In this document: positions 25,629-64,000 of the stretch, one piece after another | How the letters are laid out: every line of letters starts with the position of its first letter | How positions within the stretch are numbered: position 1 is the first letter of the stretch | Source of the DNA: Mycoplasma sp. CAG:776 | GTDB taxonomy: Bacteria; Bacillota_I; Bacilli_A; RF39; UBA660 | NCBI GenBank assembly: GCA_000438195.1 | Contig: FR903078.1 | Coordinates: forward strand, 73,845 to 137,844 | Reading direction: 5' to 3' | Length of the DNA stretch: 64,000 nt | Made by a program: the position numbers and the translations under genes | Notes under the pieces: model-generated | What the model saw: the letters and a program-made list of their open reading frames with translations, nothing else | The model's database searches: none | What the model was told of the DNA's origin: nothing

Positions 25629-26039
25629 TTAAAACATTTTATTCTTTATTTTTGTTATAATTCTTTGTTTATTATAATAAAAATTTAAATCTACTATTTC
25701 ATTATTATTTAAATTATTAGAAGTAGATAATACCATTTCATAATATGTTGTATAATTTTGCTCATTTGCTTTTAATTCTTTTTTTATGATTTCATATTTT
25801 AAATTTTTATTATTGATTGTAATTAAAGAAAAATCTAAGTTGGTTGGTATAGCGGTAGTAATTGTACAAATATTGGTACAGCTAACAATTCCTTTAGCTT
25901 GATAGTGATCATAGACTTCTACTTTATTCATATAAGATACTAGAGTCAATAGAATTACAATAATAAAAATGACTATTAAAAATCCCAGTTTTGGTTTTAT
26001 TTTTAAGAATGCTATTTTATTATTAAAAATATCTAACAT
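25629..26039 (-). CDS. Membrane-anchored accessory protein of the bacteriocin exporter (very short, HlyD/LcnD position)
   Basis: 136 aa; one N-terminal TM (LGFLIVIFIIVILLTLVSY) then a predicted beta-rich domain. Overlaps the ABC gene by 7 nt. Confidence 0.6.
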   Translation of the reverse strand: MLDIFNNKIAFLKIKPKLGFLIVIFIIVILLTLVSYMNKVEVYDHYQAKGIVSCTNICTITTAIPTNLDFSLITINNKNLKYEIIKKELKANEQNYTTYYEMVLSTSNNLNNNEIVDLNFYYNKQRIITKIKNKMF

Positions 26040-28087
26040 AACTCTCCTAGACGAATAATCTTTGTAAATTTATCCTCAACATTTTTATGGGTAACATAAA
26101 TTAAAGTATTATTTTTAAAATACGTAAAAATATTGTCTAAAATTTCTTTTTCCATATTAACATTCACTTCACTTAATGCTTCATCTAAGATAATTATCTT
26201 AGCCTTTTTTAGCAAGGCTCTTGCTAGAATAATCCTTTGCTTTTCTCCTCCACTTAAGTTATTTAGAGAAGCATTTATAATAGTGTTATATCGATTTGGT
26301 CTTTTATTTATGATTTCTTCTAATTTACAAATTTTACATACTTGTTTAAATTTTTCATCTGAAATATTTCGGAAGCATATGATATTCTCGCGAATTGTTC
26401 CTGTAAAAAGTTTTTCATTTTGGCCTACATATAGGATATTTTCTCTGATAGCTTTTAAACTATAATCACATTCACTCGTATTATTAAATTCTATATTTCC
26501 AGAATAAGTGCCTAAACTTCGATAAATAAGTTTGCAGATGGTACTTTTACCACTTCCCGATGGACCACTTAACAAAACTTTTTCTTTACTTTTTATAGCG
26601 AAATTCACTTTATTTATTATTTTATTAAATAAATCATAAGAATAAGTTAAGTCTTTTACTTCAATATTTGGATCTATTAAATGCTTTAACCCTCCTTGTT
26701 CTTTTTCTATTTCAGTTGCTAAAAATTCACTTAATTTACTAAATGAGGCTTTTAAATAATTATATTTTGGCATTAAATCAACTAATTTCTTTACTGGATT
26801 AAATAAATAGAGAATAACACTATTAAAAGTAACTAAACTTAATAGTTCTAATTCCCCTTTATAAATTAAATAAATTCCTAAAGTTGTAATCATAAATAAT
26901 CCGACTTCATAAATAAAATTCTTCAATAGTTCAATTATATTTAAAATGCTCATAAAAGAAAAATTGCTTTTTAGCATTAATATTAATTTATTTTCAATTC
27001 GGTATATAAATTCTCGAACTAAATTTAAATTTTTAATACTAAAATTCATGTCTACATTTTCAATTAATGTTGTGTTGAAATTTGTTGTTGTTTCTATATT
27101 CTCTTTTACTTTATGATAGATCACTTTACTAAATAAAAGTCCTACTATTAAATAAATAATAATTATAAAACAAAGAAGAAAAAATAATTTACTATTTATT
27201 AAAAATAGTGTTACTATCGCACCAAATATCAAAATCGTATTTAAAATTAAGGTAGCAAAAATTTCAGAAAATAAATTTTTTGTATTACTTAATTCATCAA
27301 TTCTGGTTACTATTTCTCCAGTTGTACGATTTTGAATAAATTTCAAAGGGAGTTTAAATATATGCTCTAAGAACATAGAAAATAATTCGGTGTCTAGATT
27401 TTTGTTAAGATAATTGAGGTAATAGGTTTTTATATAATTTATGATAATTTTAAAAAGAAGTATAATAAAAAAGAGAATTACGATAAATTTAATGAATTTA
27501 GCTTCTTGCCCTTCTTGAATACAAGATATACTTATTTGAAAATAAAAATTTCCAATTATGGTTAAAAGCATTAAAACAATATTAGTAATTATGATTTTTA
27601 AAAACAAATATTTATGTTTTATTAATAATTTACCAAATAATCCTACTATGGAAAGTTCTTTGGTATATCTTAATATATTATTACTAGGTGTTGCTAATAT
27701 TAAAATGTTATCCCAAATATTCAGAAATTCCTGAATTAACATTTTTACTTTTCCTTTAGCCGGGTCCATAAGATAAACATATTTTTCGTTTGCTTTATAG
27801 ATTACTACAAAATGTTGTAGCCCATTTGTTAGTTGAACATGAGCTATAGCAGGGAAATAAATATTTTCGTCTAAAATGTTTTCTGCTTTTACTCCAATCG
27901 CATCAAATCCATAACCACATAAAGCTTTTATTATATGAAATGCTGTTGTTCCGTTCATATTTGTACAAGTATCATCCCTTACTTTCTCTAATGGAACATA
28001 GCCACCATAATACTTTAAAATGGATTCTATACAACAAGCGCCACAATCTTTTAAATCACGTTGTTTTACTACTTCTATCTTAGGCAT
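26033..28087 (-). CDS. Bacteriocin-processing ABC exporter with N-terminal C39 peptidase domain
   Basis: 684 aa; C39 catalytic Cys in QRDLKDCGACCIESILKYYGG, with His (LQHFVVIYK) and Asp (YLMDPAKG). Six TM helices. Walker A GPSGSGKST, signature LSGGEKQR, Walker B IIILDEALS. Confidence 0.92.
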   Translation of the reverse strand: MPKIEVVKQRDLKDCGACCIESILKYYGGYVPLEKVRDDTCTNMNGTTAFHIIKALCGYGFDAIGVKAENILDENIYFPAIAHVQLTNGLQHFVVIYKANEKYVYLMDPAKGKVKMLIQEFLNIWDNILILATPSNNILRYTKELSIVGLFGKLLIKHKYLFLKIIITNIVLMLLTIIGNFYFQISISCIQEGQEAKFIKFIVILFFIILLFKIIINYIKTYYLNYLNKNLDTELFSMFLEHIFKLPLKFIQNRTTGEIVTRIDELSNTKNLFSEIFATLILNTILIFGAIVTLFLINSKLFFLLCFIIIIYLIVGLLFSKVIYHKVKENIETTTNFNTTLIENVDMNFSIKNLNLVREFIYRIENKLILMLKSNFSFMSILNIIELLKNFIYEVGLFMITTLGIYLIYKGELELLSLVTFNSVILYLFNPVKKLVDLMPKYNYLKASFSKLSEFLATEIEKEQGGLKHLIDPNIEVKDLTYSYDLFNKIINKVNFAIKSKEKVLLSGPSGSGKSTICKLIYRSLGTYSGNIEFNNTSECDYSLKAIRENILYVGQNEKLFTGTIRENIICFRNISDEKFKQVCKICKLEEIINKRPNRYNTIINASLNNLSGGEKQRIILARALLKKAKIIILDEALSEVNVNMEKEILDNIFTYFKNNTLIYVTHKNVEDKFTKIIRLGELC

Positions 28088-40765: not shown

Positions 40766-42058
40766 TTAAGTTTCCTCCACTTGATAAGGATTAGATATTG
40801 TTCCAGTCCCTGTTAATGAAACATTTCCTTTTAAATTGATGACTGGTTTTATATAACACGTATCACTTGTTATCCAACCATACATATAATCAATATACCC
40901 CCCACTTCCAACATGATACATATAAGGCCTTATACCATTAAAAGAATCTACCCTATGTGGCGATATCGTCCAATAATTATATCCAGTAAATAAATAATAG
41001 AGAGAATTACTTCCTTTTGAACCTGCAAACATTACTTCATCTATGGTAATTAGTCCAATTAACACGTTATATATATCCTTTTTGTTATTACATTTAAATG
41101 TAGGAGTATTATTATTCATTCTTGTTGTTGCTGCATAGTAAAAGGCACTTGAATTAGACCACAATGTACCATCTGTTTCTCTATCATTACAAAATCCAGT
41201 ATCTGAAATATAATCGTTAAAATTACTTAAATTTTCTTTATACCAATCATCTAGAGTTGTTTTTATTGTGGCAGAAATTTCTGAATTAGAAGATGTCGGT
41301 CTTTGAATATTTGGCTCATAGGTAAATCCAACATAATAGCTCCCGTTTCCAACATAGTTATATTGGCTCTTCATTAGTACTCTATCAATAGAATTATCAC
41401 CATTAGTATGAGCAGTTGTTCCATCATAAATAAGTCGTAATGTTCCATCTCCATTCACTCGAATAATTCGCCAATAGTATCCAGCAAAATAAACATAATT
41501 ATTATTTACATCCCCTCTATAATAATATGTTTTTCCATAATCATCTTCATTTTTGTATAGTCCAACAGTATTTTCTCCACATCCACTACTACAACTTGTT
41601 TGTGAAAAATCTGGAATGTCTTTTTCCACCTCTGTAAGTCTTAATATGTATTCTTGAGCAAGAAAATTATTTATTTTATCAAAATATAAATAACATTTTG
41701 TTCCAGATGTAGTTAAATTATCTATTCTGATTTTTCCGTCTATATATTCTAAATTAATATCGCTAATTTTGGTTTCTTCTATTTCACAATAGCTCATTCT
41801 TTGATTTAAATCATAGCCTTCACTAGGTACAGTTTTTATATTTTCATATTCTCCATTTTCATTTGCTTGATACATGGCTACCATTTTTAGATCATAAGGT
41901 GTATATTCGATCGTTCCATTTACTAACGGTATCGACTCAGTAGTTCGATACTTTGCTCTCGTAAAATTTAGTACTACTGTACTAATTACACCTATCACTA
42001 GTATTCCTATTAAAACATTTCTTTTTAGATGACTTCTTTTTAATACTTCAAATTTCAT
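40766..42058 (-). CDS. Membrane-anchored/secreted protein of unknown function
   Basis: 430 aa; N-terminal TM (VLIGILVIGVISTVVL), Tyr/Asn/Gly-rich beta-type ectodomain. The C-terminal YWTISP...IKPVINLK motif is reminiscent of surface-protein repeat domains. Confidence 0.6.
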   Translation of the reverse strand: MKFEVLKRSHLKRNVLIGILVIGVISTVVLNFTRAKYRTTESIPLVNGTIEYTPYDLKMVAMYQANENGEYENIKTVPSEGYDLNQRMSYCEIEETKISDINLEYIDGKIRIDNLTTSGTKCYLYFDKINNFLAQEYILRLTEVEKDIPDFSQTSCSSGCGENTVGLYKNEDDYGKTYYYRGDVNNNYVYFAGYYWRIIRVNGDGTLRLIYDGTTAHTNGDNSIDRVLMKSQYNYVGNGSYYVGFTYEPNIQRPTSSNSEISATIKTTLDDWYKENLSNFNDYISDTGFCNDRETDGTLWSNSSAFYYAATTRMNNNTPTFKCNNKKDIYNVLIGLITIDEVMFAGSKGSNSLYYLFTGYNYWTISPHRVDSFNGIRPYMYHVGSGGYIDYMYGWITSDTCYIKPVINLKGNVSLTGTGTISNPYQVEET

Positions 42059-50436: not shown

Positions 50437-50513
50437 GCGCCCTTAGCTCAATTGGATAGAGCGTTAGACTACGGATCTAAAGGTTAGGGGTTCGACTCCC
50501 TTAGGGCGCACCA
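50437..50513 (+). tRNA. tRNA-Arg (anticodon ACG)
   Basis: Acceptor GCGCCCT/AGGGCGC, anticodon arm TTAGA-CTACGGA-TCTAA, T-arm AGGGG-TTCGACT-CCCTT, encoded CCA. Confidence 0.9.
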
Positions 50514-50517
50514 TTAT

Positions 50518-50594
50518 CGAGAAGTAGCACAATTTGGTAGTGCACTTGGTTTGGGACCAAGGGGTTGCAGGTTCAAATCCTGTCTTCTCGACCA
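50518..50594 (+). tRNA. tRNA-Pro (anticodon TGG)
   Basis: Acceptor CGAGAAG/CTTCTCG, anticodon arm CTTGG-TTTGGGA-CCAAG, T-arm GCAGG-TTCAAAT-CCTGT, encoded CCA. Starts 4 nt after tRNA-Arg. Confidence 0.9.
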
Positions 50595-50715
50595 TGATTG
50601 AAAGAAATCTCATCTTATTGATGAGTTTTTTTATGCCTGCAATTCCCCTTGGTCTAAACAAGTGCTTCAAATATAAATTCGTTCAAATAATTTATAAAAA
50701 TTTTTAGCCTCTAAT

Positions 50716-51194
50716 TCAAAACTGATATAAATCTTTTTTAGTCCTACTTTTAAAAAAGCCTATTTTAAAACTTATTCGAATAGTTCCTTGTTCTATTAAT
50801 TCTATAAATTTATTAAAATTCTTTAATTTATAGTATTTTATTTGATAATATTTGTAATATTTCTTGTTATTCCTAGCTGTTGGCCAATCATATAAAATAT
50901 TTTTATTTGTTTCTTTATCTGGATATCCATATCTCATACATAACTCTTTCATTTCTATTCCGCTTGGTTTTAAATTAAATAATATAGTGTAAGAATTTGT
51001 ATATCCTAATTTTGTTTTGATTTCAATTCCGTTATAATCTGGCATATCTAAATTATCTTCTTTTTTTCCTAGAAGATCTTCTAAAGTCTTCCCTACTCCG
51101 GTATAACCTTTTCTTGTAGATTTTACATATCCAAGTCCAAGTGCTCTTATTTTTTAAATTCTTCATTTAATAATTCTAAATTTTTTGTTTGCAT
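50716..51194 (-). pseudogene. MvaI/BcnI-like restriction endonuclease remnant (frameshifted, probably C-terminally truncated)
   Basis: ATG 51194 (RBS GGAGGAAAA) gives MQTKNLELLNEEFKK*. After a shift in the A6 run (51150-51155) it continues IRALGLGYVKSTRKGYTGVGKTLEDLLGKKEDNLDMPDYNGIEIKTK.... This parallels the BcnI N-terminal G.vGq.lE..fG...D....E.K catalytic region. Confidence 0.55.
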
Positions 51195-51313
51195 TTTTCC
51201 TCCATCAGGAAATTATACTACAATATTTATTTTCTTTATGTCGAAGTTTGTCTATCTGTTTTTTAAACATTTAAAAAGCAAGAAATCATTTTTAATTCTT
51301 ACTCTATGTTTTC

Positions 51314-51652
51314 TTATTTAATTAATAAATATTTTTCTAAGTTTTCACAATAAATTTTTAAAATGTAATTATTCTCTGTTTTTAAATAATTTATGTTATC
51401 CTTAAATTCAAAGCCTCTTATTTGACTTTTATCTAATTCATAAACCATTTCATATTTAGGTTTGTAGGAACTCATTATGATAGGCCAGTATCTAAAATCA
51501 AATCTATTTATATCTTGAAATAAAAGAAGCCTTTTATTTGTTATACATATAGCTAAAGTGTACTTATTATCTTCAGCATAAACTAATATATCTTCTAATG
51601 TGATAATAATATGTTCATTTTCTTTTAATTCTATATTGGCTAAATTTATAAT
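51314..51652 (-). CDS. Hypothetical protein, ORF without canonical start (possible ATT/ATA start)
   Basis: 113 open codons by hand translation: (I)INLANIELKENEHIIITLEDILVYAEDNKYTLAICITNKRLLLFQD...YILKIYCENLEKYLLIK*. AGAGGTG lies 7 nt upstream of ATT 51652. No ATG/GTG/TTG near the 5' end. Confidence 0.35.
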   Translation of the reverse strand: MINLANIELKENEHIIITLEDILVYAEDNKYTLAICITNKRLLLFQDINRFDFRYWPIIMSSYKPKYEMVYELDKSQIRGFEFKDNINYLKTENNYILKIYCENLEKYLLIK

Positions 51653-51681
51653 AAAAGAGCACCTCTTCTTCTTACTTTTTA

Positions 51682-51985
51682 CTATAAAATTATAAAATAT
51701 AAAACGATACTCATAATTAAAAAAATAATATAAGATCTAGCAGAATTCTGGATATTAATATTTTCATCTTTACTAAATGCAAAAACTAATAATATAATCC
51801 ACCCTATTATAGGAATTGAGAATACAATTTGGTATCCTAAATATCCCCACATAGTAATTGGCTTATATTGCTCAGGAATATTTTCTTCGCTTATTAAATA
51901 ATTCCATATTTCTCTTTTGATTTCCACAATTATAGCAAATATTAGACCCTTTTCTTATCTTTTCTCCGCATTTCTCACAATACAT
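51682..51985 (-). pseudogene. Zinc-ribbon membrane protein, apparently frameshifted
   Basis: ATG 51985 gives MYCEKCGEKIRKGSNICYNCGN... (CxxC...CxxC zinc ribbon), stopping after 37 aa. The TM part (track ORF 51682-51927, ...MWGYLGYQIVFSIPIIGWIILLVFAF...) is in another frame that is open from 51954. Confidence 0.45.
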
Positions 51986-52011
51986 ATAATCCTACACTCA
52001 CTTTCATTTGT

Positions 52012-52437
52012 TTATTCTTCTTTAAATTCTATTATTTCTAATAAGTCTTCAGCATCAATTTTATGCATCTTTTTATCACTATCAAAAGAAATATATCCTT
52101 TATTTTCTTCATAGTAATAAAAAGCAATACTAGTTATTATTTTATTTTTCTTATCTAATAGCTTTAAACGATATTCTGGAAGTCCTTCATATGTAATGAT
52201 TTCTTCTGACTCTGACTCTTTATAATTTGAAATAATTTCGATTATATTATCAATGTCTTTTTTATTGGTAATTTCTTTTTCTTTTTTGGGATTTTTTATA
52301 GGATCACCTGTAGTTATTTCATTCACTATAATTTTTTTAGTTTTGGATAATTCATCTGTTTTAATAAATGTTAAAAAAAGAATGATTGCAATAATTAAAA
52401 CAATACAAATTATTGATATCAATATTTTCTTTTTCAT
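52012..52437 (-). CDS. Membrane-anchored hypothetical protein
   Basis: 141 aa; N-terminal TM (ILISIICIVLIIAIILFLTF) plus a small extracytoplasmic domain. Confidence 0.6.
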   Translation of the reverse strand: MKKKILISIICIVLIIAIILFLTFIKTDELSKTKKIIVNEITTGDPIKNPKKEKEITNKKDIDNIIEIISNYKESESEEIITYEGLPEYRLKLLDKKNKIITSIAFYYYEENKGYISFDSDKKMHKIDAEDLLEIIEFKEE

Positions 52438-52521
52438 AACTCCTCCTATTTCTTAGTTTCATTATACCATACAGAAAATTTATTTTCTATTAAAATAAAA
52501 AAATAGAGCATCACTACTCTA

Positions 52522-53188: not shown

Positions 53189-53557
53189 TTAGTCCACTAC
53201 TGTTGCTGTAACATTATTTTTTTTCTCATCGTATTCTAGTTTTACTTTTTTATCATTAAAATTTTTAGATGAATCAGTTGGGTCTGTTAAAACACCTGAT
53301 TCATTTCCTGCTAAATATCCAGCTTCTATCAAATCATCTACACTAATATATGTTGTATTTGTTTCTTCAAACAATGTTGTATTTGCTAAAGCATAGTCCT
53401 CTGCTTGTACTTCAATTAAATATTCTACCTCTTCTATTGCTTCATTTTTATCTATTGCAAAAGCATATGACGTATGATTAATTGTTATAAATGCTACTAT
53501 TCCTAATAATACAATTACTACTAATATCTCTATTTTTGAATATCCTAACTTATTCAT
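53189..53557 (-). CDS. Prepilin-type N-terminal cleavage/methylation domain protein (ComGC/pseudopilin-like)
   Basis: 122 aa; MNKLG|YSKIEILVVIVLLGIVAFITI has a class III signal with Glu at +5. Confidence 0.75.
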   Translation of the reverse strand: MNKLGYSKIEILVVIVLLGIVAFITINHTSYAFAIDKNEAIEEVEYLIEVQAEDYALANTTLFEETNTTYISVDDLIEAGYLAGNESGVLTDPTDSSKNFNDKKVKLEYDEKKNNVTATVVD

Positions 53558-56571: not shown

Positions 56572-56608
56572 CATATAAAATACTGGATTTTTTTCTCCAG
56601 TATTTTTT

Positions 56609-57358
56609 TTAATTTAATTTTAACAAATGTTGCCAAGTATACATTTTGGCAGATACTTTTCCATCTTGATATTTACTAGCTAGACCTACATCACTCTGAT
56701 ACTTTTTAATGCAGGCTTTCATGTCCTTACCAAACTCACCATCTACTCCACAGCTTCCTAAATCATAGCCTAGACTTTGTAAGTAAATTTGAAGTGGTTT
56801 TACTGCTTTATGATTCCAACCTGTTCCGGTGGAAATCGTTGGGGTTTTTGATAAGGTTTCGGCCCCTGCAATACCATCAACATTTGCACCAATTACACTT
56901 TGTAAATCTCTAACAAAAGTAGTGTAATTATCATTAACTTTATTAAAAGGATTTTCATTTGTTAAATATGGTAATGGATCTACATATCCGTTTTTATAAA
57001 TGGCAAAATGTAAGTTATTTCCTGTAGCATTTCCTGTTTTACCCATAGTAGCTATTACTTCTCCTTTTACTACATTATCACCTTTTTTTACTTTAATTGA
57101 TCCTTCTTTTAGATGAAAATAGCGATGCTCTATTCCGTTAGTTGTAATAGCAATCCAATAGCCACCGCCACTAGAGTCATATCCAACATAAGTTACTGTT
57201 CCGTTTTCAATCGCTACAATATCATCTACCCCATTTGCTCCTACTAAATCCATTCCATTATGGGTACTTCGATTTTCATTTCTGGTTTTATAATCACTAG
57301 TTACATAGTGCTTTCCACCTTTTAAAACATTATTCTTCACGTTCAGTAGTGCCATCAA
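56609..57358 (-). CDS. M23 peptidase fused to a PG_binding_1 domain (peptidoglycan hydrolase, endolysin-like)
   Basis: 249 aa; M23 motifs HNGMDLVG and GNNLHFAIY. C-terminal KPLQIYLQSLGYDLGSCGVDGEFGKDMKACIKKYQSDVGL is a peptidoglycan-binding repeat. No signal peptide is evident. Confidence 0.85.
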   Translation of the reverse strand: MMALLNVKNNVLKGGKHYVTSDYKTRNENRSTHNGMDLVGANGVDDIVAIENGTVTYVGYDSSGGGYWIAITTNGIEHRYFHLKEGSIKVKKGDNVVKGEVIATMGKTGNATGNNLHFAIYKNGYVDPLPYLTNENPFNKVNDNYTTFVRDLQSVIGANVDGIAGAETLSKTPTISTGTGWNHKAVKPLQIYLQSLGYDLGSCGVDGEFGKDMKACIKKYQSDVGLASKYQDGKVSAKMYTWQHLLKLN

Positions 57359-57722
57359 TATCCTCCTCTCCTATAATTCCTTCTAATGTTTCATAGATTT
57401 TCTTTGGTAGAGGAAGACCCATTTTACACCAACATTTTAAAATAATTAATCCTTCATGAGCAATAAAGAAATAAATTACTAATGTTCTTATTGCTTCACT
57501 ACTTCCCATGATATTATCTAATAATACGGATAATGATACGACCATTAAATAACCTAGACTACGTATTAATCCTTTTAAGCCTACTAATTTATTCATCTTA
57601 TGACAAAATATCACTTTACACCAACCTGTAATATAAACATATAACATTACAATTAATAAAACAATAATTGGCTTATCTATTCCTCCTAATAAGTAAGAGA
57701 AAACATTATATATATGTTCCAT
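57330..57722 (-). CDS. Holin (Phage_holin_4_1 / TcdE-UtxA-like family)
   Basis: 130 aa; three TM helices. YVYITGWCKV...LVGLKGLIRSLGYLMVV...FFIAHEGLIILKCWCKMGLPLPKKI parallels the family pattern DYITG...SK.G.KG...ANE.lSIlEN...GvPiP. Overlaps the hydrolase gene by 29 nt. Confidence 0.75.
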   Translation of the reverse strand: MEHIYNVFSYLLGGIDKPIIVLLIVMLYVYITGWCKVIFCHKMNKLVGLKGLIRSLGYLMVVSLSVLLDNIMGSSEAIRTLVIYFFIAHEGLIILKCWCKMGLPLPKKIYETLEGIIGEEDIDGTTEREE

Positions 57723-57978
57723 AATTCTTCCTCCTACTTATTATATGAACTTTATTATAGTAACGAGTTGGCGTTTGTACTATATTTGATATTGATATGT
57801 GTTCTTGAATTCATAATAAAAAGAACTAGCATAATTCAATTGCGTTAGTTTTTAAAATTAGATAAATCTTCTTGTTCTTAAAAATATAATTTATTCTCCA
57901 ATATTAAATCCTATTTTTATTTTACCATCAATTACTATATTTTGTTTAATTTTGCATATTTTTTGTCTGTTTTAATAT

Positions 57979-58554
57979 TTAATCATAGGGAATATTTGAA
58001 AAAACACTACTCCAATTTTCATTTATTATATTTTCTTCAATTATTCCATAATCATATTTTATATATTCATTTTTTGATGATATAAAATAGTAATTGTAAT
58101 AAACATCATAGTATGTTGTTATATATAAGTAAAATGCAATATAGTCATTTCTTCTACCAACAATTGAAAGATTTGTTTTTACAAAAGTTTCCACAATATC
58201 TTTGATTGGTAGATTTTCTATCTTTTTAGAAGTACACACTTCCATTCCATGATAATCATATTTATGATCATTAGCATTAGAACACCAAATATTTTTTCCT
58301 ATTCTATCTAATTCTGGATATTCTATAAAATAATTTACTAATTCATTTAAATATTCTTCATTTTCTTGAAAATACTCTAAACGTTTTTCTTTGCTTTCAT
58401 ATTCCATAGCTTTTTTATCAATAATATTCTCTTTAAGACCATCACCTAAAAATATCACTATTATTGTTATTGGAAATATAAGTAATGCAATTATTAGAAT
58501 TATTATACTAACAATTATTATTTTCTTTCTATTTATTTTTAAAAATTGCATCAT
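57979..58554 (-). CDS. Membrane-anchored hypothetical protein (candidate immunity/orphan module)
   Basis: 191 aa; one N-terminal TM then a Tyr/Asn-rich domain. 4-nt ATGA overlap with the upstream gene. Confidence 0.55.
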   Translation of the reverse strand: MMQFLKINRKKIIIVSIIILIIALLIFPITIIVIFLGDGLKENIIDKKAMEYESKEKRLEYFQENEEYLNELVNYFIEYPELDRIGKNIWCSNANDHKYDYHGMEVCTSKKIENLPIKDIVETFVKTNLSIVGRRNDYIAFYLYITTYYDVYYNYYFISSKNEYIKYDYGIIEENIINENWSSVFSNIPYD

Positions 58555-59345
58555 CTTTTATTGCCTTTATTTTCTAGTTCTAAAATTATTTTTATTTCTT
58601 TTTTTAATTGATTAAACTGCATTAAGCCAAATCCTTCTATTTCATTTGGTATATACATTTTGTTTCCTCCAAAAGATACCCCTATTGGTAATTTGTAATA
58701 TCTTTTATCTTGATCTAATGTATTAATAAAGCGATTAAACATGGAACTCATTCTATCTACACTGATTATAATTGTTATAAATAATTCATACCTCATACTT
58801 TTCTTCGCCTGATTAAAATCTTGTTCTATTATAGGAAATATCTCTTTCTCATACAATTCATTGAAGTTTTCTTCGGTTAATTCTTCTAATCGAGCATCAA
58901 TTATATAATAATTTTTCCTTTTTATCACTTTATGATATATTTTTAAGCTATCATTTGTATATTTTTCTTCATAGTTAAATATTTTTATTCTTTTATTTAG
59001 ATGATTACTAAAATCAAGATAATTATCTTGTTTTAATAAATACTTATCTGGCTTGGGTGGTTTAATGTTGCCATATACTATTAAAAAATAAAATAGCGAA
59101 GTGAAATAAAAAAAGCTAAAAATTATTGAATATAATACAATGGATAAATTATTTAATTTGCTATCAAAAAAGAAAATTATAATAATTAATGTAATAAACA
59201 AAATTGAAGATAGTAACACAAAAAATTTAATTAAATTTAGTTTTTGAATACTTTTTAATCTATTATCGATAATTTTAAAAGTTATAAAACTTGTAAATAA
59301 TATTAAGAATATGATTAATAATATATAAAACTTATTAATGGTCAT
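58551..59345 (-). CDS. Polytopic membrane protein (candidate cognate immunity protein of the Rhs toxin)
   Basis: 264 aa; 3-4 N-terminal TM helices plus a cytoplasmic domain. It is the first gene downstream of the Rhs C-terminal toxin domain. Confidence 0.55.
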   Translation of the reverse strand: MTINKFYILLIIFLILFTSFITFKIIDNRLKSIQKLNLIKFFVLLSSILFITLIIIIFFFDSKLNNLSIVLYSIIFSFFYFTSLFYFLIVYGNIKPPKPDKYLLKQDNYLDFSNHLNKRIKIFNYEEKYTNDSLKIYHKVIKRKNYYIIDARLEELTEENFNELYEKEIFPIIEQDFNQAKKSMRYELFITIIISVDRMSSMFNRFINTLDQDKRYYKLPIGVSFGGNKMYIPNEIEGFGLMQFNQLKKEIKIILELENKGNKR

Positions 59346-59448: not shown

Positions 59449-62400
59449 TTAAGAGAAAAGCTTTTTAAAGAATGATTTTACTTTTTTCTTTACAGAATTA
59501 TATGTTTTCTTTACAAAAGACGCAGCTTTTTTTACTGTTTTTCCTATATCTGTAGCTATACTTGTTGTTGTTGAGACTATTGTGTTCTTAGCAATTTTCT
59601 TTGTATAGTTACCTGTAAATGAAGTTTTAATTTTTGTAGGTCTTATCCATCCCTTATTTAATGGAACTATTTTATCTGCAAATTTTCCTGTTGCCATTCC
59701 AATTGTTCCATTTACTGCTGTATCCACTGCAATTTCTTTTAATGAATTTCCTGAAATTGTACTCTCAATAAATGAACTTCCATAATTACTTAGTATAGTC
59801 CCTCCAACAGTAAAACCTAATGGTGTGGTTGCAATTAATCCTGAAAATGCTCCACCTAAAGCAGAGGCGCCTACTTCTTTCCAATAATCTGTACCACTTG
59901 CAGAACTCGTAAGCATAGTAGACAAAGCAGATATTGCTCCACCTATAAGTGCTCCAGCTATCTGGAACCAAAATTCCCCTTCTACATCTATCCTACTTGT
60001 TGGGTTATTTCCTGTATAAGCATACATATTGCTAGAATTAACATCTTGTTCTGTATCTATGTAAATATCGGCACTAATAAATCTTCCCCACTCTGGATTA
60101 TAGTATCTACTATTTAAATAATATAACTTTGTTTCATTATCATAATAGTATGATCTATATCTAAATGGATTAATATATCCTATATGAGATGTATCAGTAA
60201 TAATAGTGTTGTTATTATCTTTAATAGATATTAATTTTCCCCATGAGTTATATTCATAACTACATAATAAATTATAATTACTATCTGTTATTCCTATGAT
60301 ATCTTCTTGCATATTCTTAATATAATAATATATTGTATCATTATATTTAAATCCTATTAATTTGTTGTTATTGTCTCTAATATAATATGTTTTATTATTT
60401 CCAGTTGTTTCAAAGATTATATTTCTTGCTTCATAATAATAATTTGTTATTATGTTATTAACTGTCTTTCCTAATCTTAAACTTTCATTATCATATCTAT
60501 ATGTAATATTTAAATTATTATCATAATCATTATAACTTCTCATCTCTTTGGCATTACCCCAAGTTAGTGTTTTGTTTCCTATGGTTAATGGATTACCTAA
60601 TTCATCATAAGTAATTGTTTCATTGTTATATTTTGTTAATTGATCTTCCCAATTAGTGTTATTATATTCATAAGTATCAGTATGTAAGAGATTATAAGTA
60701 TTTAATTCATATTCTTGTTTCTTTAAGATATTTCCCGCATTATCATAAGTATATCTTATTGTTTTATTTAAACTATAGTTATCTTCTTTAATCAGTTCAT
60801 TAAAGTTATCATATTCATAATGATTGATTAATTTTTTATTTATATAAATATTGGTGATATTATATAAATTATCATAATCATATTCATATAAATCATTATT
60901 TATCTTCATTGATTTTAATACTGTAGATGTTTTATTACCGTTTGTTATGTAGGTATATTCTACTTTGTTATTACCGTTTATATCTTTACTTATTAACCTT
61001 CCTAGATAATCATAACTATAATTTAGATTATTATTATCAAATGTTACTTTGGTTATTGCATCATCTTTGTTGTATTCGAAAGTTACTGTTTCTTTATCAT
61101 TTAATGTATAATCTTTTTTAATAATATTATTATTTGCATTATAATCATATTCAATCATAAAATCATTCGCTACGTATTTACTTATTCTGGAAGATAAGTC
61201 ATAATAAAAATCATAGTTTTCAGCATTACTTGTTATTTTAGCTAAATTTCCTAAATTATCATAATGATATGTATAAATTGTATCATCATTATTAATTGAT
61301 TTAAGTCTATCTAATTCGTCATAAGTATAGTTTGTTATATCCCCATTTCCAAAAGTTGTTTTGATTAAATTTCCGTTTTTTTCTTCATACTCATTACTAA
61401 CTAAATTGTTATTGTTAATATTAATTGTTAAAGTATTTAAGAAATTGTCATAAGTAAAATTATATTCTTTATTATTCGATGTAATTTTCGTTAGTGCATT
61501 ATTGTCATTATAAGTATAGTTTACTTCTTTTTCTTCTTTCTTTACTTTGGTTATTTGCTCTTTATCATTATAAGTATAGTAAGTTGTTATGTTATTAGCG
61601 TCTGTAACACTATTAGTAAGTCCATTTATTTCATTAACATCGTAACTTGTTTCTTTACCTAAAGAGTCAATTGTTTTAGTTGTAAATCTACCATCATTAG
61701 TATATTCAGCTTTTGATTCAATAAATAAGCGTGTATCATTATCTTCAAAGTAGAACTCTTCATCTGATTTAGATGTATCTGTAGTTTTTATTGTTATTTT
61801 ATCATTTATATTCGCTAAATTATAGTTTTCTAAATCAATTGATGTTCCTCCTTCTTCATCTGTTTTGATATATTTTAGTTTTGGTGTAATTAAATAACTA
61901 TTATTATCATTTAGATGTAAGTTAAATAATGTTTCCTCTCCTGTTTGTTTTGTTAAACTAATATTATTGTTTAAATATGTTAAATATTTATCTCCTGTTT
62001 TAATACGGTAATATTCTCCTTCTTTTAGTAAAGTAAAGGCATCATGACTACAAGTATTTTCTTTTAAATTAATTTCATTGGTTAAAAAATCACAATCCCA
62101 GTATTTTTTAGAACCTTTTAGGCGAATATAATAGTTTTTTTGATCTATAATATCTTGATCGGGATTTACATTATTAATGAGTGTTTTGATTGGGTTACCA
62201 AATTCATCATATTCAATTTCATTTGATATTCCTGATGGTGATATTCCTTTTAATATACGGTCTGTAACATTATTATCATATTCAAACTTAAAATTATTAC
62301 CTAAAGGATTAAACATACTAATTAATTGATTATTTTCGTCATAAGTAAAAGTTGTATTCGTTCCATCTGCATTCCTAATCTTATCTAAATTACCAGTTTC

Positions 62401-64000
62401 ACTATTATTATAATTATAATTTTGCTCTATATCTTTTGATAAAGATATATTAGCTATATATAAATTATTAGCATTATAATTTGAAAAGAAAGTTAAAGCA
62501 ATGGTATCATAGTTATATAAGCTATCAGCAGCAAAAGGCGCAGAAAAATATTGCCATTCATCATTGTGAGCTGGAAGTCCTGATGGAACTAACCCATATC
62601 CTTCTTCTTCGGGTATATTGTTATAATAGAAACTTAATAAGACTGAGTTATTATATTCGGTTCCTGTTCCTCCTTTGGATAATCCTTCATTTTTATACCA
62701 AAATGATAAATTATATAAATCTCCTATTCGATCTTCTGATAAATCTCCTATACCGTTTACTTTTAACTTTGTAGATACTGCAATATCGTAATCAGGATTA
62801 GAAGATATTTTTAAAGCTTTTACACCATTATTTAATGTTACTACATCAATAGCTGTTGAGGCATCATTTCCATTTCTATCTGTTGCTGATACTTCCCAGT
62901 CTGTTAAATCATTATGGAAATCTCCATTATCAAGCATATTATAGTAATTAGCTATTCTTCCTTCTTCTAATTGAACATCATCTAAGTATGCTGTAGTGTC
63001 TTTATCTCCATAAATACTAATAGACATGTGCCCTGTTTCTCCATCTGTTGGATACTCTCCTGTTACGCTATATCTAGTAAATTCTTCATTTGGTGGTATT
63101 ATTATGCTATCTAAAACGTAAGTCTTGTTTACTCCCCTCTTTTCTAAATCCATTGTTAGAGGTTTATCATTTTTAAAATAACCACTAAAAGTATAAGTTT
63201 TACCACTTGGTGGAAAATTTAGTTGTTCAAAATAGCAATAGTTACTAAATTTCAAACTATAGTTTCCTGTCCTTTTTTCTTCCGTTGTTCTTGTACCCCA
63301 AAATGGTGTATTTTCTTCTTCAAAGCTACTATTTTTCAATAAATTTTTAGTATATTTTACTGCTAGAATTTCATTTTTTATTTTATTGTTTGCTTTATTT
63401 ATATCTTCAAAATAATTTCCATTACTTTCTTTATATACGGTATTATCTTCATAAACTGTTCCTTTACCATAAGCTTTATTTAAATCAGCTTCACTACTTA
63501 AATTAGTTATTCCTATAGTATTTCCTTGTTCATTAAAAAGATAAGTATTATATCTTTCTTTATTATCTTTTACTCTTGTTACTAAAAAACCATATTCAAA
63601 TTCTAAGGAAGTTCCTTCTTCACTATTTAATCCATATTCTGTTATTTTCTTTATTTTATATGGACTTACATCATAATATGTAAACCCTTTACTTAGGCCA
63701 TTTACATCTGTTATTTTTTCTAATAAATTATTACTATTATAAGTAAAACTTGTTGTACCATTTTTCGTTATCATATTCATTATCTTATTATTAGAATAAT
63801 TTATAGTAGTAGTTTTACTATCACTCGTAATTACCATATTATTATCATTATAAGTAATATTAATATTAGAGTTATTGGCATCTGTTACCTTATTAATTCT
63901 ATTATTTGTATCATAAGTAATTGATACTGTATCTTCATTAGTATTAATTAATTTAGTTAAATAATAAATATTATTATTTAATGTAAATATATATTTATTA
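59449..64000 (-). CDS. Rhs/YD-repeat polymorphic toxin (WapA-like), partial: N-terminus lies beyond the window end
   Basis: More than 1500 open codons. The frame stays open from 63837 to 64000 (…ITYDTNNRINKVTDANNSNINITYNDNN-MVITSDS). There are dozens of YD repeats (Y.YD..GN), CBM-like inserts, and the Rhs core end RYYNPEWGRFISAD...YAYTGNNPTSRIDVEGEF, followed by a 173-aa C-terminal domain. Confidence 0.9.
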   Translation of the reverse strand, partial: NKYIFTLNNNIYYLTKLINTNEDTVSITYDTNNRINKVTDANNSNINITYNDNNMVITSDSKTTTINYSNNKIMNMITKNGTTSFTYNSNNLLEKITDVNGLSKGFTYYDVSPYKIKKITEYGLNSEEGTSLEFEYGFLVTRVKDNKERYNTYLFNEQGNTIGITNLSSEADLNKAYGKGTVYEDNTVYKESNGNYFEDINKANNKIKNEILAVKYTKNLLKNSSFEEENTPFWGTRTTEEKRTGNYSLKFSNYCYFEQLNFPPSGKTYTFSGYFKNDKPLTMDLEKRGVNKTYVLDSIIIPPNEEFTRYSVTGEYPTDGETGHMSISIYGDKDTTAYLDDVQLEEGRIANYYNMLDNGDFHNDLTDWEVSATDRNGNDASTAIDVVTLNNGVKALKISSNPDYDIAVSTKLKVNGIGDLSEDRIGDLYNLSFWYKNEGLSKGGTGTEYNNSVLLSFYYNNIPEEEGYGLVPSGLPAHNDEWQYFSAPFAADSLYNYDTIALTFFSNYNANNLYIANISLSKDIEQNYNYNNSETGNLDKIRNADGTNTTFTYDENNQLISMFNPLGNNFKFEYDNNVTDRILKGISPSGISNEIEYDEFGNPIKTLINNVNPDQDIIDQKNYYIRLKGSKKYWDCDFLTNEINLKENTCSHDAFTLLKEGEYYRIKTGDKYLTYLNNNISLTKQTGEETLFNLHLNDNNSYLITPKLKYIKTDEEGGTSIDLENYNLANINDKITIKTTDTSKSDEEFYFEDNDTRLFIESKAEYTNDGRFTTKTIDSLGKETSYDVNEINGLTNSVTDANNITTYYTYNDKEQITKVKKEEKEVNYTYNDNNALTKITSNNKEYNFTYDNFLNTLTININNNNLVSNEYEEKNGNLIKTTFGNGDITNYTYDELDRLKSINNDDTIYTYHYDNLGNLAKITSNAENYDFYYDLSSRISKYVANDFMIEYDYNANNNIIKKDYTLNDKETVTFEYNKDDAITKVTFDNNNLNYSYDYLGRLISKDINGNNKVEYTYITNGNKTSTVLKSMKINNDLYEYDYDNLYNITNIYINKKLINHYEYDNFNELIKEDNYSLNKTIRYTYDNAGNILKKQEYELNTYNLLHTDTYEYNNTNWEDQLTKYNNETITYDELGNPLTIGNKTLTWGNAKEMRSYNDYDNNLNITYRYDNESLRLGKTVNNIITNYYYEARNIIFETTGNNKTYYIRDNNNKLIGFKYNDTIYYYIKNMQEDIIGITDSNYNLLCSYEYNSWGKLISIKDNNNTIITDTSHIGYINPFRYRSYYYDNETKLYYLNSRYYNPEWGRFISADIYIDTEQDVNSSNMYAYTGNNPTSRIDVEGEFWFQIAGALIGGAISALSTMLTSSASGTDYWKEVGASALGGAFSGLIATTPLGFTVGGTILSNYGSSFIESTISGNSLKEIAVDTAVNGTIGMATGKFADKIVPLNKGWIRPTKIKTSFTGNYTKKIAKNTIVSTTTSIATDIGKTVKKAASFVKKTYNSVKKKVKSFFKKLFS

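Follow-up and report, generated by a model that had tools for sequence, protein, structure and literature searches.

Large toxins without export signals that lie beside phage-type lysis genes have been described in clostridia and in Gram-negative bacteria. The C. difficile pathogenicity locus (PaLoc) has the order TcdR, TcdB, TcdE holin, TcdA and TcdL endolysin remnant, and is thought to be prophage-derived (PMC6200909, PMC3369941, PMC12485765). In Yersinia entomophaga (YenLC) and Y. enterocolitica (Tc-PAI), a specialised subpopulation of cells lyses and so releases Tc toxins (PMC10847048, PMC9718411), and the APSE phage of Hamiltonella carries a YD-repeat toxin cassette (PMC8579659). For Rhs toxins of Gram-positive bacteria, the routes known are that of WapA, which has a Sec signal and a wall anchor, and type VII secretion (T7SS) (PMC12704120), and according to recent papers it is not known which machinery delivers YD-shell toxins that have no signal (PMC13018210, PMC12704120). 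Here, we describe a holin gene and an overlapping M23 peptidoglycan hydrolase gene that lie next to an Rhs toxin gene in Mycoplasma sp. CAG:776 (contig FR903078.1, positions 73,845–137,844 of the forward strand; these 64,000 nt are the window, and its own numbering is used below). We lean towards the view that the pair is a functional phage-type lysis cassette, which would act as the release arm of a prophage-derived Rhs toxin-immunity-lysis module.

Counted downstream from the Rhs open reading frame (ORF), the holin gene comes third and is on the same strand, as an earlier reading made from the letters of the window (the sequence-only reading) had it. The genes concerned are:

56609–57355, minus strand: peptidoglycan hydrolase of 248 aa with M23 (PF01551) and PG_binding_1 (PF01471) domains, overlapping the holin stop
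57330–57722, minus strand: holin of 130 aa, TcdE/UtxA-type (Phage_holin_4_1; PF05105, TIGR01593, phrog_199)
57979–58554, minus strand: immunity-like membrane protein of 191 aa, with one N-terminal transmembrane segment by hydropathy and no family match
58551–59345, minus strand: immunity-like polytopic membrane protein of 264 aa, with three to four N-terminal transmembrane segments by hydropathy
59449–64000, running off the window, minus strand: C-terminal 1516 codons of an Rhs/YD-repeat polymorphic toxin (PF05593, 1.2e-19)

By curated cut-offs, the holin is a member of the Phage_holin_4_1/TcdE-UtxA family, with matches to PF05105 (E=3.6e-24, 85.5 bits, cut-off 22.2), to TIGR01593 'toxin secretion/phage lysis holin' (53.9 bits, cut-off 40.2) and to the holin family phrog_199 (8.9e-15). 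Its hydropathy profile has strong transmembrane segments at residues 19–37 and 77–99 and a weaker middle one (approximately 52–72) just under the threshold, and the C-terminal tail, EEDIDGTTEREE, is strongly acidic. The hydrolase ORF, at 56609–57358, matches Peptidase_M23 (PF01551, E=9.7e-22, 77 bits, residues 32–126), PG_binding_1 (PF01471, E=1.2e-12, residues 183–235) and PHROG families of endolysins and metallo-endopeptidases, and by hydropathy its N-terminus has no hydrophobic segment. Pfam, NCBIfam and hydropathy agree that the pairing of a TcdE/UtxA-family holin with a signal-less M23/PG_binding_1 protein, as first proposed, is real. The overlap between the two genes also exists, but its length is 26 nt and not 29 nt, because a Shine-Dalgarno sequence, GAGGAGG, lies 6 nt ahead of the ATG at 57355, the start that gene callers choose; an exact look-up of the TTG-start version of 249 aa found no match, and the ATG-start form and the holin were both matched. 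A holin overlapping a signal-less modular hydrolase is the architecture of a phage lysis cassette, as in Gram-positive temperate phages, where the endolysin likewise combines a catalytic and a wall-binding domain. The same arrangement ends the tail module of a genuine prophage in a related organism (L089), where a holin_4_1 gene is followed by an M23/PG_binding_1 gene 48 % identical to the one in the window, and a 78 % identical M23/PG_binding_1 gene lies inside another phage tail region (L023). The PG_binding_1 module is also common to Peptidase_M15_3 lysins, at 79–88 % identity, and is hence a wall-binding module shuffled among catalytic domains.

Outside this locus, the window is housekeeping chromosome (trmD, serS, infC, rpsB, tsf, a gerA-type operon, phosphoketolase) of a spore-former with a G+C content of 27 %. 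Pfam and PHROG annotation found no phage structural genes in the 64 kb, nor any capsid, terminase, portal, tape-measure or integrase genes; structural and packaging genes were likewise absent from the 10 kb past the window end, and ileS and spx delimit the island. An intact prophage nearby is ruled out for the window and these further 10 kb. The exact holin protein was found in 505 blocks of public metagenome assemblies, mainly from human gut, and contigs carrying it gave the complete order of the locus: ileS, spx, a gene for a 383-aa tail-fibre-like protein, a gene for a 121-aa protein (p121), Rhs (2078 aa), the immunity array, holin and M23, with nagZ (convergent), NfeD, SPFH and UDG 3' of M23. 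The phage remnants at the locus are the tail-fibre-like gene and p121 alone. The earlier statement that the visible flanks hold no phage genes is correct within the window, but the tail-fibre-like gene lies just past its end, two genes upstream of Rhs, and is followed by p121.

The Rhs reading frame is open to the window end, and the full-length protein has a polar, conserved N-terminal region, a DNRLRE domain (residues 235–421), YD repeats and an Rhs_assc_core (1812–1903). Domain searches and hydropathy found no signal peptide, LXG or WXG domain in the 2078 aa, which settles in the negative the question that the sequence-only reading had raised about the N-terminus, and neither an N-terminal hydrophobic segment nor a T7SS domain was found in the tail-fibre-like protein, Rhs or M23. 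The lack of Sec, LXG and WXG features on the full Rhs favours an unconventional export route. The C-terminal domain (59449–59990) is Gly/Ala/Ser-rich, hydrophobic and glycine-zipper-like, with a Lys-rich tail, and this toxin domain matched no family; its composition, together with the membrane location predicted for the immunity proteins, suggests a membrane-targeting toxin. Between Rhs and the holin, strains of one species (L001–L010) have 2–6 paralogous membrane protein genes and, in some strains, a NUDIX gene; the 264-aa protein is present in 1–3 paralogous copies, and the copy number of the 191-aa protein is also strain-variable. In one of these strains (L002), Rhs ends in another C-terminal domain, Tox-WTIP, and DUF2691 is present as well; the holin is unchanged across L001–L010. 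The locus thus has the YD repeats, Rhs core, variable C-terminal domain and downstream immunity genes that define Rhs/YD polymorphic toxins. These features are shared with WapA and the T7SS-associated Rhs proteins, as is the DNRLRE domain with WapA of S. suis (PMC12704120), but here there is no signal peptide, LysM, wall anchor, LXG/WXG domain or EssC neighbourhood.

The 383-aa tail-fibre-like protein matches Gp10_C (PF21939, 7e-15) and the tail fiber family phrog_2097 (1e-19), and its residues 217–342 share 49–52 % identity with tail proteins of Blautia and Faecalimonas phages. Rhs starts 8–30 nt downstream of p121, whose family comprises 44 proteins, found in this lineage only and at this locus only. 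Relatives of p121 with 30–52 % identity are phage proteins of 160–170 aa in IMG/VR, encoded between primase/helicase genes and terS-terL-portal, and this slot, judged by gene order, is that of late-gene activators. No Pfam, NCBIfam or PHROG family matched p121. In an AF2 model (pLDDT 89) it forms a long helix and a three-helix bundle, for which the top PDB matches were all sigma region 4 and non-significant, and hhalign of p121 against the small sigma70_r4 proteins of other modules (see below) was negative. Hence, p121 is not called a sigma factor, and assignment to the TcdR/UviA-type group-5 sigma-70 factors with regions 2 and 4 was rejected, there being no family match and no significant structural match. 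A regulatory role is nonetheless likely, to judge from gene position and the predicted fold. Proteins of 158–161 aa with an N-terminal 'KRRKxKDNPYTL' and a C-terminal Sigma70_r4_2 domain were observed beside several other Rhs modules (L118, L121, L125–L128, L142, L149, L152); they have their own conserved upstream box, TAGAGGTCCACC, and no detectable similarity to p121. The arrangement resembles that of PaLoc and other large clostridial toxin loci (TcsE, TpeE) in being Gram-positive and in combining a PF05105/TIGR01593 holin with a very large signal-less toxin, an endolysin-type gene and a small regulator. It differs in that the toxin is of the Rhs/YD antibacterial type with immunity genes and not a glucosyltransferase and has a tail-fibre-like partner, the M23+PG_binding_1 hydrolase is complete and not a fragment, and p121 is not a TcdR-family sigma factor.

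Metagenomes were scanned with an alignment of the N-terminal 620 residues of Rhs, giving 80 loci that were annotated using hidden Markov models and phmmer seeds, with Pfam/PHROG spot checks and mechanically called ORFs. Many of the loci come from redundant strains of one lineage, and there are approximately 17 distinct lineages with lysis genes and four without. In the close Rhs subfamily (≥36 % identity), 36 of 39 loci have a Gp10_C tail-fibre-like gene directly upstream of Rhs, several have p121, and 22 of the 27 assessable loci have holin and/or peptidoglycan hydrolase genes within approximately 2.7 kb downstream or approximately 2 kb upstream. In the distant subfamily (24–33 % identity), the tail-fibre-like gene is missing and one locus of ten contains lysis genes, a figure that is biased low because the lysis-gene seeds came from the close subfamily. 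The hydrolases differ across the Rhs loci and are not orthologous (M23+LysM, M23+SH3, M15+PG_binding_1, Amidase_2, NlpC/P60-like), and there are four holin types. The combinations are:

L125, L134, L141, L150, L166: holin_4_1 with M23+LysM or M15+PG_binding_1
L120, L128, L142, L149, L152: 99-aa phrog_4105 protein, small holin and M23
L121, L126: holin_4_1-like protein and M23/SH3
L124: holin and Amidase_2
L151: holin_5_1-like protein and NlpC/P60-like protein
L118, L123, L130, L153: XhlA-like protein, holin and M23, upstream of Rhs

The ORFs of L150 overlap all the way from Rhs through immunity and M23 to the holin, and in L141 the gaps are ≤20 nt. The modules are found in islands, integrative and conjugative elements (ICEs) and two real phages, and their flanks are mostly not prophage: L150 sits in an ICE with a type IV secretion system coupling protein and a large serine recombinase, and L125, which opens with a sigma70_r4 protein, is flanked by UmuC, radical-SAM and truncated penicillin-binding protein genes. 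In the phages (IMG/VR L198/L199), the genes for the major tail protein and further tail proteins are followed by those for an XhlA-like protein, a holin and an M23-like endolysin, after which come a 200-aa tail-fibre-like protein, Rhs (2089 aa) and immunity. The proposal that the cassette had become detached from phages therefore has to be replaced, as the same Rhs unit adjoins a lysis cassette in real phages and the whole unit appears to be prophage-derived. The tail-fibre-like/Rhs/immunity unit would be phage-associated cargo that travels with the lysis cassette, the phage having been lost in many lineages.

Two further features of the window bear on the expression of the pair:

57739–57780, minus strand: bipartite promoter-like element of the holin-M23 operon, GTACAAACGCCAACTC - N17 - CATATAATA, recognised by conservation
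56577–56606, both strands: bidirectional intrinsic terminator common to the M23 gene and convergent nagZ, an 11-bp stem followed by a T-run

The ribosome-binding site of the holin, AGGAGG, is downstream of the bipartite element at 57730–57735. The element, GTACAAnCGCCAAYTC-N17-(T)TCATAYAATAArTAGGAGG, is kept in at least 13 species of the close group whatever the gene upstream (ileS or immunity), and in species without Rhs it lies directly after the ileS terminator. It occurs once in the window. In 1.6 Mb of loci, GCCAAYTC-N16/17-CATAnnnTA was found only before the holin and before p121 (as a one-base variant in L012), and shuffles gave 0–1 matches. A simple sigma-70 scan found no more promoter-like sites than in shuffles, no terminator was found between the immunity gene and the holin, and an Rfam search of the holin leader returned no family. 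A second motif, TCTAGTGAAAGTCTAGTA, for which up to three mismatches were allowed, gave 40 matches versus 0–6 in shuffles of 2.65 Mb, all of them in gene orientation. In approximately ten lineages it precedes tail-fibre-like genes (L122, the L125 group, L128), M23 (the L125 group; L028, L029, L114–L116), the holin (L025, L030) or, directly, Rhs (L007 at 2009–2026, L012, L111, L117, L136/137), and in IMG/VR phages it comes right after p121-like genes, ahead of terS. The L007 copy, TCTAGCGAAATTCTAGTT, falls just past the window end and 12 nt before the Rhs start, and coincides with the final, conserved codons of p121 (SSEILV). From this position, a site of regulation seems to be embedded in the p121 coding sequence directly ahead of Rhs.

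When the M23 alignment was used to scan one genome per GTDB species, 78 loci were obtained. The hosts, Candidatus Caccenecus included, belong to uncultured Bacilli of the gut and carry the labels 'Tenericutes' or 'Bacilli bacterium'. An M23 orthologue (59–87 % identity) is present in approximately 25 species at a fixed place upstream of (nagZ)-NfeD-SPFH-UDG. The genes upstream of the holin vary: Rhs and/or immunity genes are found there in the window species and in L011, L012, L014, L016 and L030, p121 and a 442-aa gene in L025 and a single ORF between ileS and the holin in L020 and L031, and the holin directly follows ileS with no Rhs between them in L013, L017, L018, L024, L026, L032, L033 and L035. 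Pairwise ratios of non-synonymous to synonymous substitution rates (dN/dS; NG86 medians, which are rough figures as dS is close to saturation) were 0.36 for the holin and 0.19 for M23, compared with 0.31 for nagZ, 0.17 for NfeD, 0.27 for UDG and 0.05 for SPFH; among the Rhs-bearing species, they were 0.26 and 0.13 for holin and M23, respectively. Sequence comparison thus clearly identifies holin-M23 as a maintained, vertically inherited pair, neither a fresh prophage scar nor strictly tied to Rhs. Unlike phage cassettes, it keeps one chromosomal position from species to species, and the purifying selection on it is like that on host genes. A second M23/PG_binding_1 gene, holin-less and 44–50 % identical to the first, was seen at another fixed chromosomal site, after spoIIGA-sigE-sigG-lspA-rluD-rhomboid, in metagenome-assembled genomes (MAGs) of rabbit-gut Bacilli (L038–L058, L091), and would be an independent domestication of the same type of endolysin.

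Specificity of the cassette for Rhs is ruled out by this synteny across relatives, since species that have no Rhs at the locus keep holin-M23 under purifying selection. The pair is therefore not an Rhs-only device, unless Rhs sits elsewhere in those genomes, and, by the same comparison, it must have, or have acquired, a use beyond Rhs cargo, as its continued constraint without Rhs at the locus implies an additional or acquired role. The linkage that had been put forward is found between Rhs and lysis genes of other families in many lineages, but holin-M23 is also kept without Rhs. Likewise, of the features expected of a type 10 system, a holin and hydrolase with signal-less cargo outside a functional prophage are present, and dedication to that cargo was not found. 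The locus is like the type 10 and Tc systems, Serratia ChiWXYZ and Salmonella TtsA in placing a holin and a peptidoglycan hydrolase beside signal-less cargo, and like the Tc toxins in pairing an Rhs-repeat cocoon (TcB/TcC there) with a separate receptor-binding component. The type 10 and Tc systems are Gram-negative, with spanins, a muramidase or L-Ala-D-Glu endopeptidase, and insect or host-cell targets, whereas the system described here, known from its genes, is Gram-positive and has no spanin, an M23 endopeptidase and an immunity array pointing to bacterial targets.

The synteny also raises the question of whether the pair is a host-domesticated autolysis cassette unrelated to Rhs, with a role, for example, in lysing the mother cell when sporulation ends, in programmed lysis that frees DNA or vesicles, or in remodelling of the wall, and the Rhs island merely inserted at a permissive ileS-holin site. 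We consider this unlikely, though it is the alternative with most in its favour. It accords with the presence of holin-M23 directly after ileS in at least eight Rhs-less species under selection like that on the neighbours, with the pair's own conserved promoter directly after the ileS terminator, with the second, solo M23/PG_binding_1 gene of the related MAGs, and with a spore-forming lineage (the gerA operon in the window, spoIIGA-sigE-sigG in a relative). The -10 block before the holin, CATAnnnTA, moreover corresponds to the sigma-K-type consensus. However, the -35-like box is spaced at 19 nt and not the 16–17 nt of sigma-K, and no other gene in the window has the motif; although the -10 fits, the -35 box and spacing fit neither sigma-K nor sigma-E, and a sporulation-sigma promoter is kept as no more than a minor alternative. 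The same type of promoter also precedes p121-Rhs. In addition, p121 occurs at this locus only, even where Rhs is absent, which suggests that the ancestral insert was the whole module, partly lost later, and elsewhere the link between Rhs and lysis genes recurs in contexts that are unrelated, where the lysis genes are not orthologous and ORFs overlap.

That the pair is a functionless remnant of a decayed prophage, merely not yet deleted, is very improbable. Phage relatives exist for every part of the module (tail-fibre-like protein, p121, holin and endolysin) and there has been differential loss across species, Rhs having gone in some and the holin in one lineage, but the ORFs are intact in approximately 25 species at dN/dS values of 0.13–0.37, the identical holin recurs in the 505 metagenome blocks, and promoter, ribosome-binding site and terminator are all conserved. 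The sequence-only reading had named the edge of a degraded prophage unrelated to Rhs as the outcome that would count against it; the prophage origin is supported, but the cassette and Rhs are linked. In the simplest history for the window family, the whole module would have been inserted between ileS and nagZ and later lost differentially, which would account for p121-M23 remnants without Rhs.

We favour a release role on the grounds of recurrent linkage, non-orthologous replacement, operon fusion, shared cis motifs and the lack of export signals. Gene content, conservation, selection, linkage and the shared motifs are direct observations, and from them we infer co-expression of Rhs with holin-M23, release of the toxin and its lytic or non-lytic mode. 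A phage-late-type switch in a fraction of the cells would turn on both the p121-Rhs and the holin-M23 operons, and the signal-less Rhs, tail-fibre-like protein and hydrolase would build up in the cytoplasm. The holin would then open the membrane, M23, anchored through PG_binding_1, would cut peptidoglycan cross-links, and the Rhs complex would escape, most simply by colicin-like or Stx-like lysis of the producer, with a non-lytic, type-10-like passage as the alternative; the immunity genes would shield sibling cells. Suicidal release by a subpopulation would be the most economical mechanism, and non-lytic passage is possible but less likely. Such a system would resemble colicin and S-pyocin operons in the order of toxin, immunity and release genes, in suicidal release with protection of kin and in strain-variable toxin/immunity pairs, but release would be by a phage holin/endolysin and not a lipoprotein, the toxin is a 2000-aa Rhs cocoon, and the regulation looks phage-late-like rather than SOS/LexA. 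As in Stx prophages and the APSE phage of Hamiltonella, a toxin gene lies by phage lysis genes and would be freed when these fire; here, in contrast, the phage has gone from the window and from most of the surveyed loci, leaving regulator, tail-fibre-like, toxin, immunity and lysis genes.

Several points weigh against this role. Phage genome architecture can by itself place a toxin 'moron' beside a phage lysis cassette, with no functional dependence between the two. At least eight species have ileS followed by holin-M23 without Rhs, tail-fibre-like gene or p121, at dN/dS of 0.37 (holin) and 0.19 (M23), and in one lineage (L028, L029, L114) p121 is followed by M23 without a holin. The canonical TCTAGT motif, of the TCTAGTGAAAGTCTAGTA type, is absent from the window, so that the variant GCCAAYTC element alone ties the holin to p121, and the regulatory role of p121 is argued from gene position and from sigma region 4 matches with E values of 0.2–3. 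The organism is uncultured and the case is wholly comparative. Finally, the HxH motif of M23 is incomplete, its first His being Asn (N114-L-H116), and full catalytic activity is therefore not assured. Residue 114 is Asn or Cys in every close orthologue and Cys in L023, the phage copy with 78 % identity, and HLH is retained in PDB homologues, in relatives at a greater distance and in the lysins that go with other Rhs modules. The active-site residues H32, D36 and H116 and the second catalytic residue, H81, are invariant among 14 homologues, so HxxxD and the Zn-binding His are kept, and the assignment to the M23 fold and family holds on these residues despite N114, which may mean altered or attenuated catalysis.

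A softer attack on the wall would suit strictly non-lytic, type-10-like secretion, in which the holin lets M23 out, a local gap opens in the wall, Rhs passes through and the producer survives, a mode that has been proposed for TcdE and for Serratia ChiWXYZ. Non-lytic holin-dependent export in clostridia is supported by the literature (PMC9527704, PMC11344133), and the holin here is of the TcdE/UtxA 'toxin secretion' family. On the other hand, the same gene pair ends real prophages, where cell lysis is required, the endolysins of other Rhs modules are of ordinary kinds (HxH M23, amidase or M15), and a cocoon of approximately 240 kDa with its partner would be hard to pass through an intact membrane. 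In the closest studied Rhs-type case, the Tc toxin of Yersinia, release is by lysis of a subpopulation (PMC10847048). We regard strictly non-lytic secretion as improbable. The release route for Rhs that the sequence-only reading proposed is consequently retained in part: the signal-less Rhs, the recurrent linkage to lysis genes and the shared rare cis motifs speak for it, but the cassette is neither phage-detached nor dedicated to Rhs.

Some other features of the window were recorded. A 684-aa ABC transporter (25629–28087, minus strand) has an N-terminus that, judged by eye, resembles a peptidase domain of the C39 type, which processes bacteriocins; a small membrane protein is encoded downstream, XRE-type regulators are close by, and this may be a bacteriocin export locus. 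At 50437–52500, a stretch that varies between strains comes after tRNA-Arg and tRNA-Pro and contains a fragment of an MvaI/BcnI-like restriction enzyme (50716–51045), and a 479-aa ORF present in this region in other strains (L001) is missing from the window. Two prepilin-like N-termini, each a short charged leader followed by a hydrophobic helix, are encoded at 53189–53557 and at 40766–42058 (minus strand), and could belong to competence or type IV pilus pseudopilins.

Our literature search found no paper tying Rhs toxins to lysis cassettes in Gram-positives, and the 2012 survey of polymorphic toxins lists no holin/endolysin route. Export of a signal-less Rhs by a holin and hydrolase has thus probably not been described for Gram-positives before. 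More tentatively, we suggest that the modules might together represent a widespread, self-contained tail-less bacteriocin system of gut Firmicutes, made up of a receptor-binding, tail-fibre-like protein and a signal-less Rhs cocoon, both produced in the cytoplasm, dedicated holin/endolysin release and a co-opted phage late circuit (p121-type regulator plus operator TCTAGTGAAAGTCTAGTA). If true, Gram-positives would have lysis-dependent Rhs export and, in it, their own counterpart of colicins and Tc toxins. The survey supplies candidate cis elements and a candidate regulator. Were the module confirmed, it would give a concrete answer to how signal-less Rhs/YD toxins leave Gram-positive cells, and would extend holin/endolysin release from the clostridial glucosylating toxins and the Gram-negative Tc toxins to interbacterial Rhs toxins in Bacilli that are abundant in the human gut and uncultured. 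The survival of phage-type lysis cassettes in phage-free chromosomes would be explained as well.

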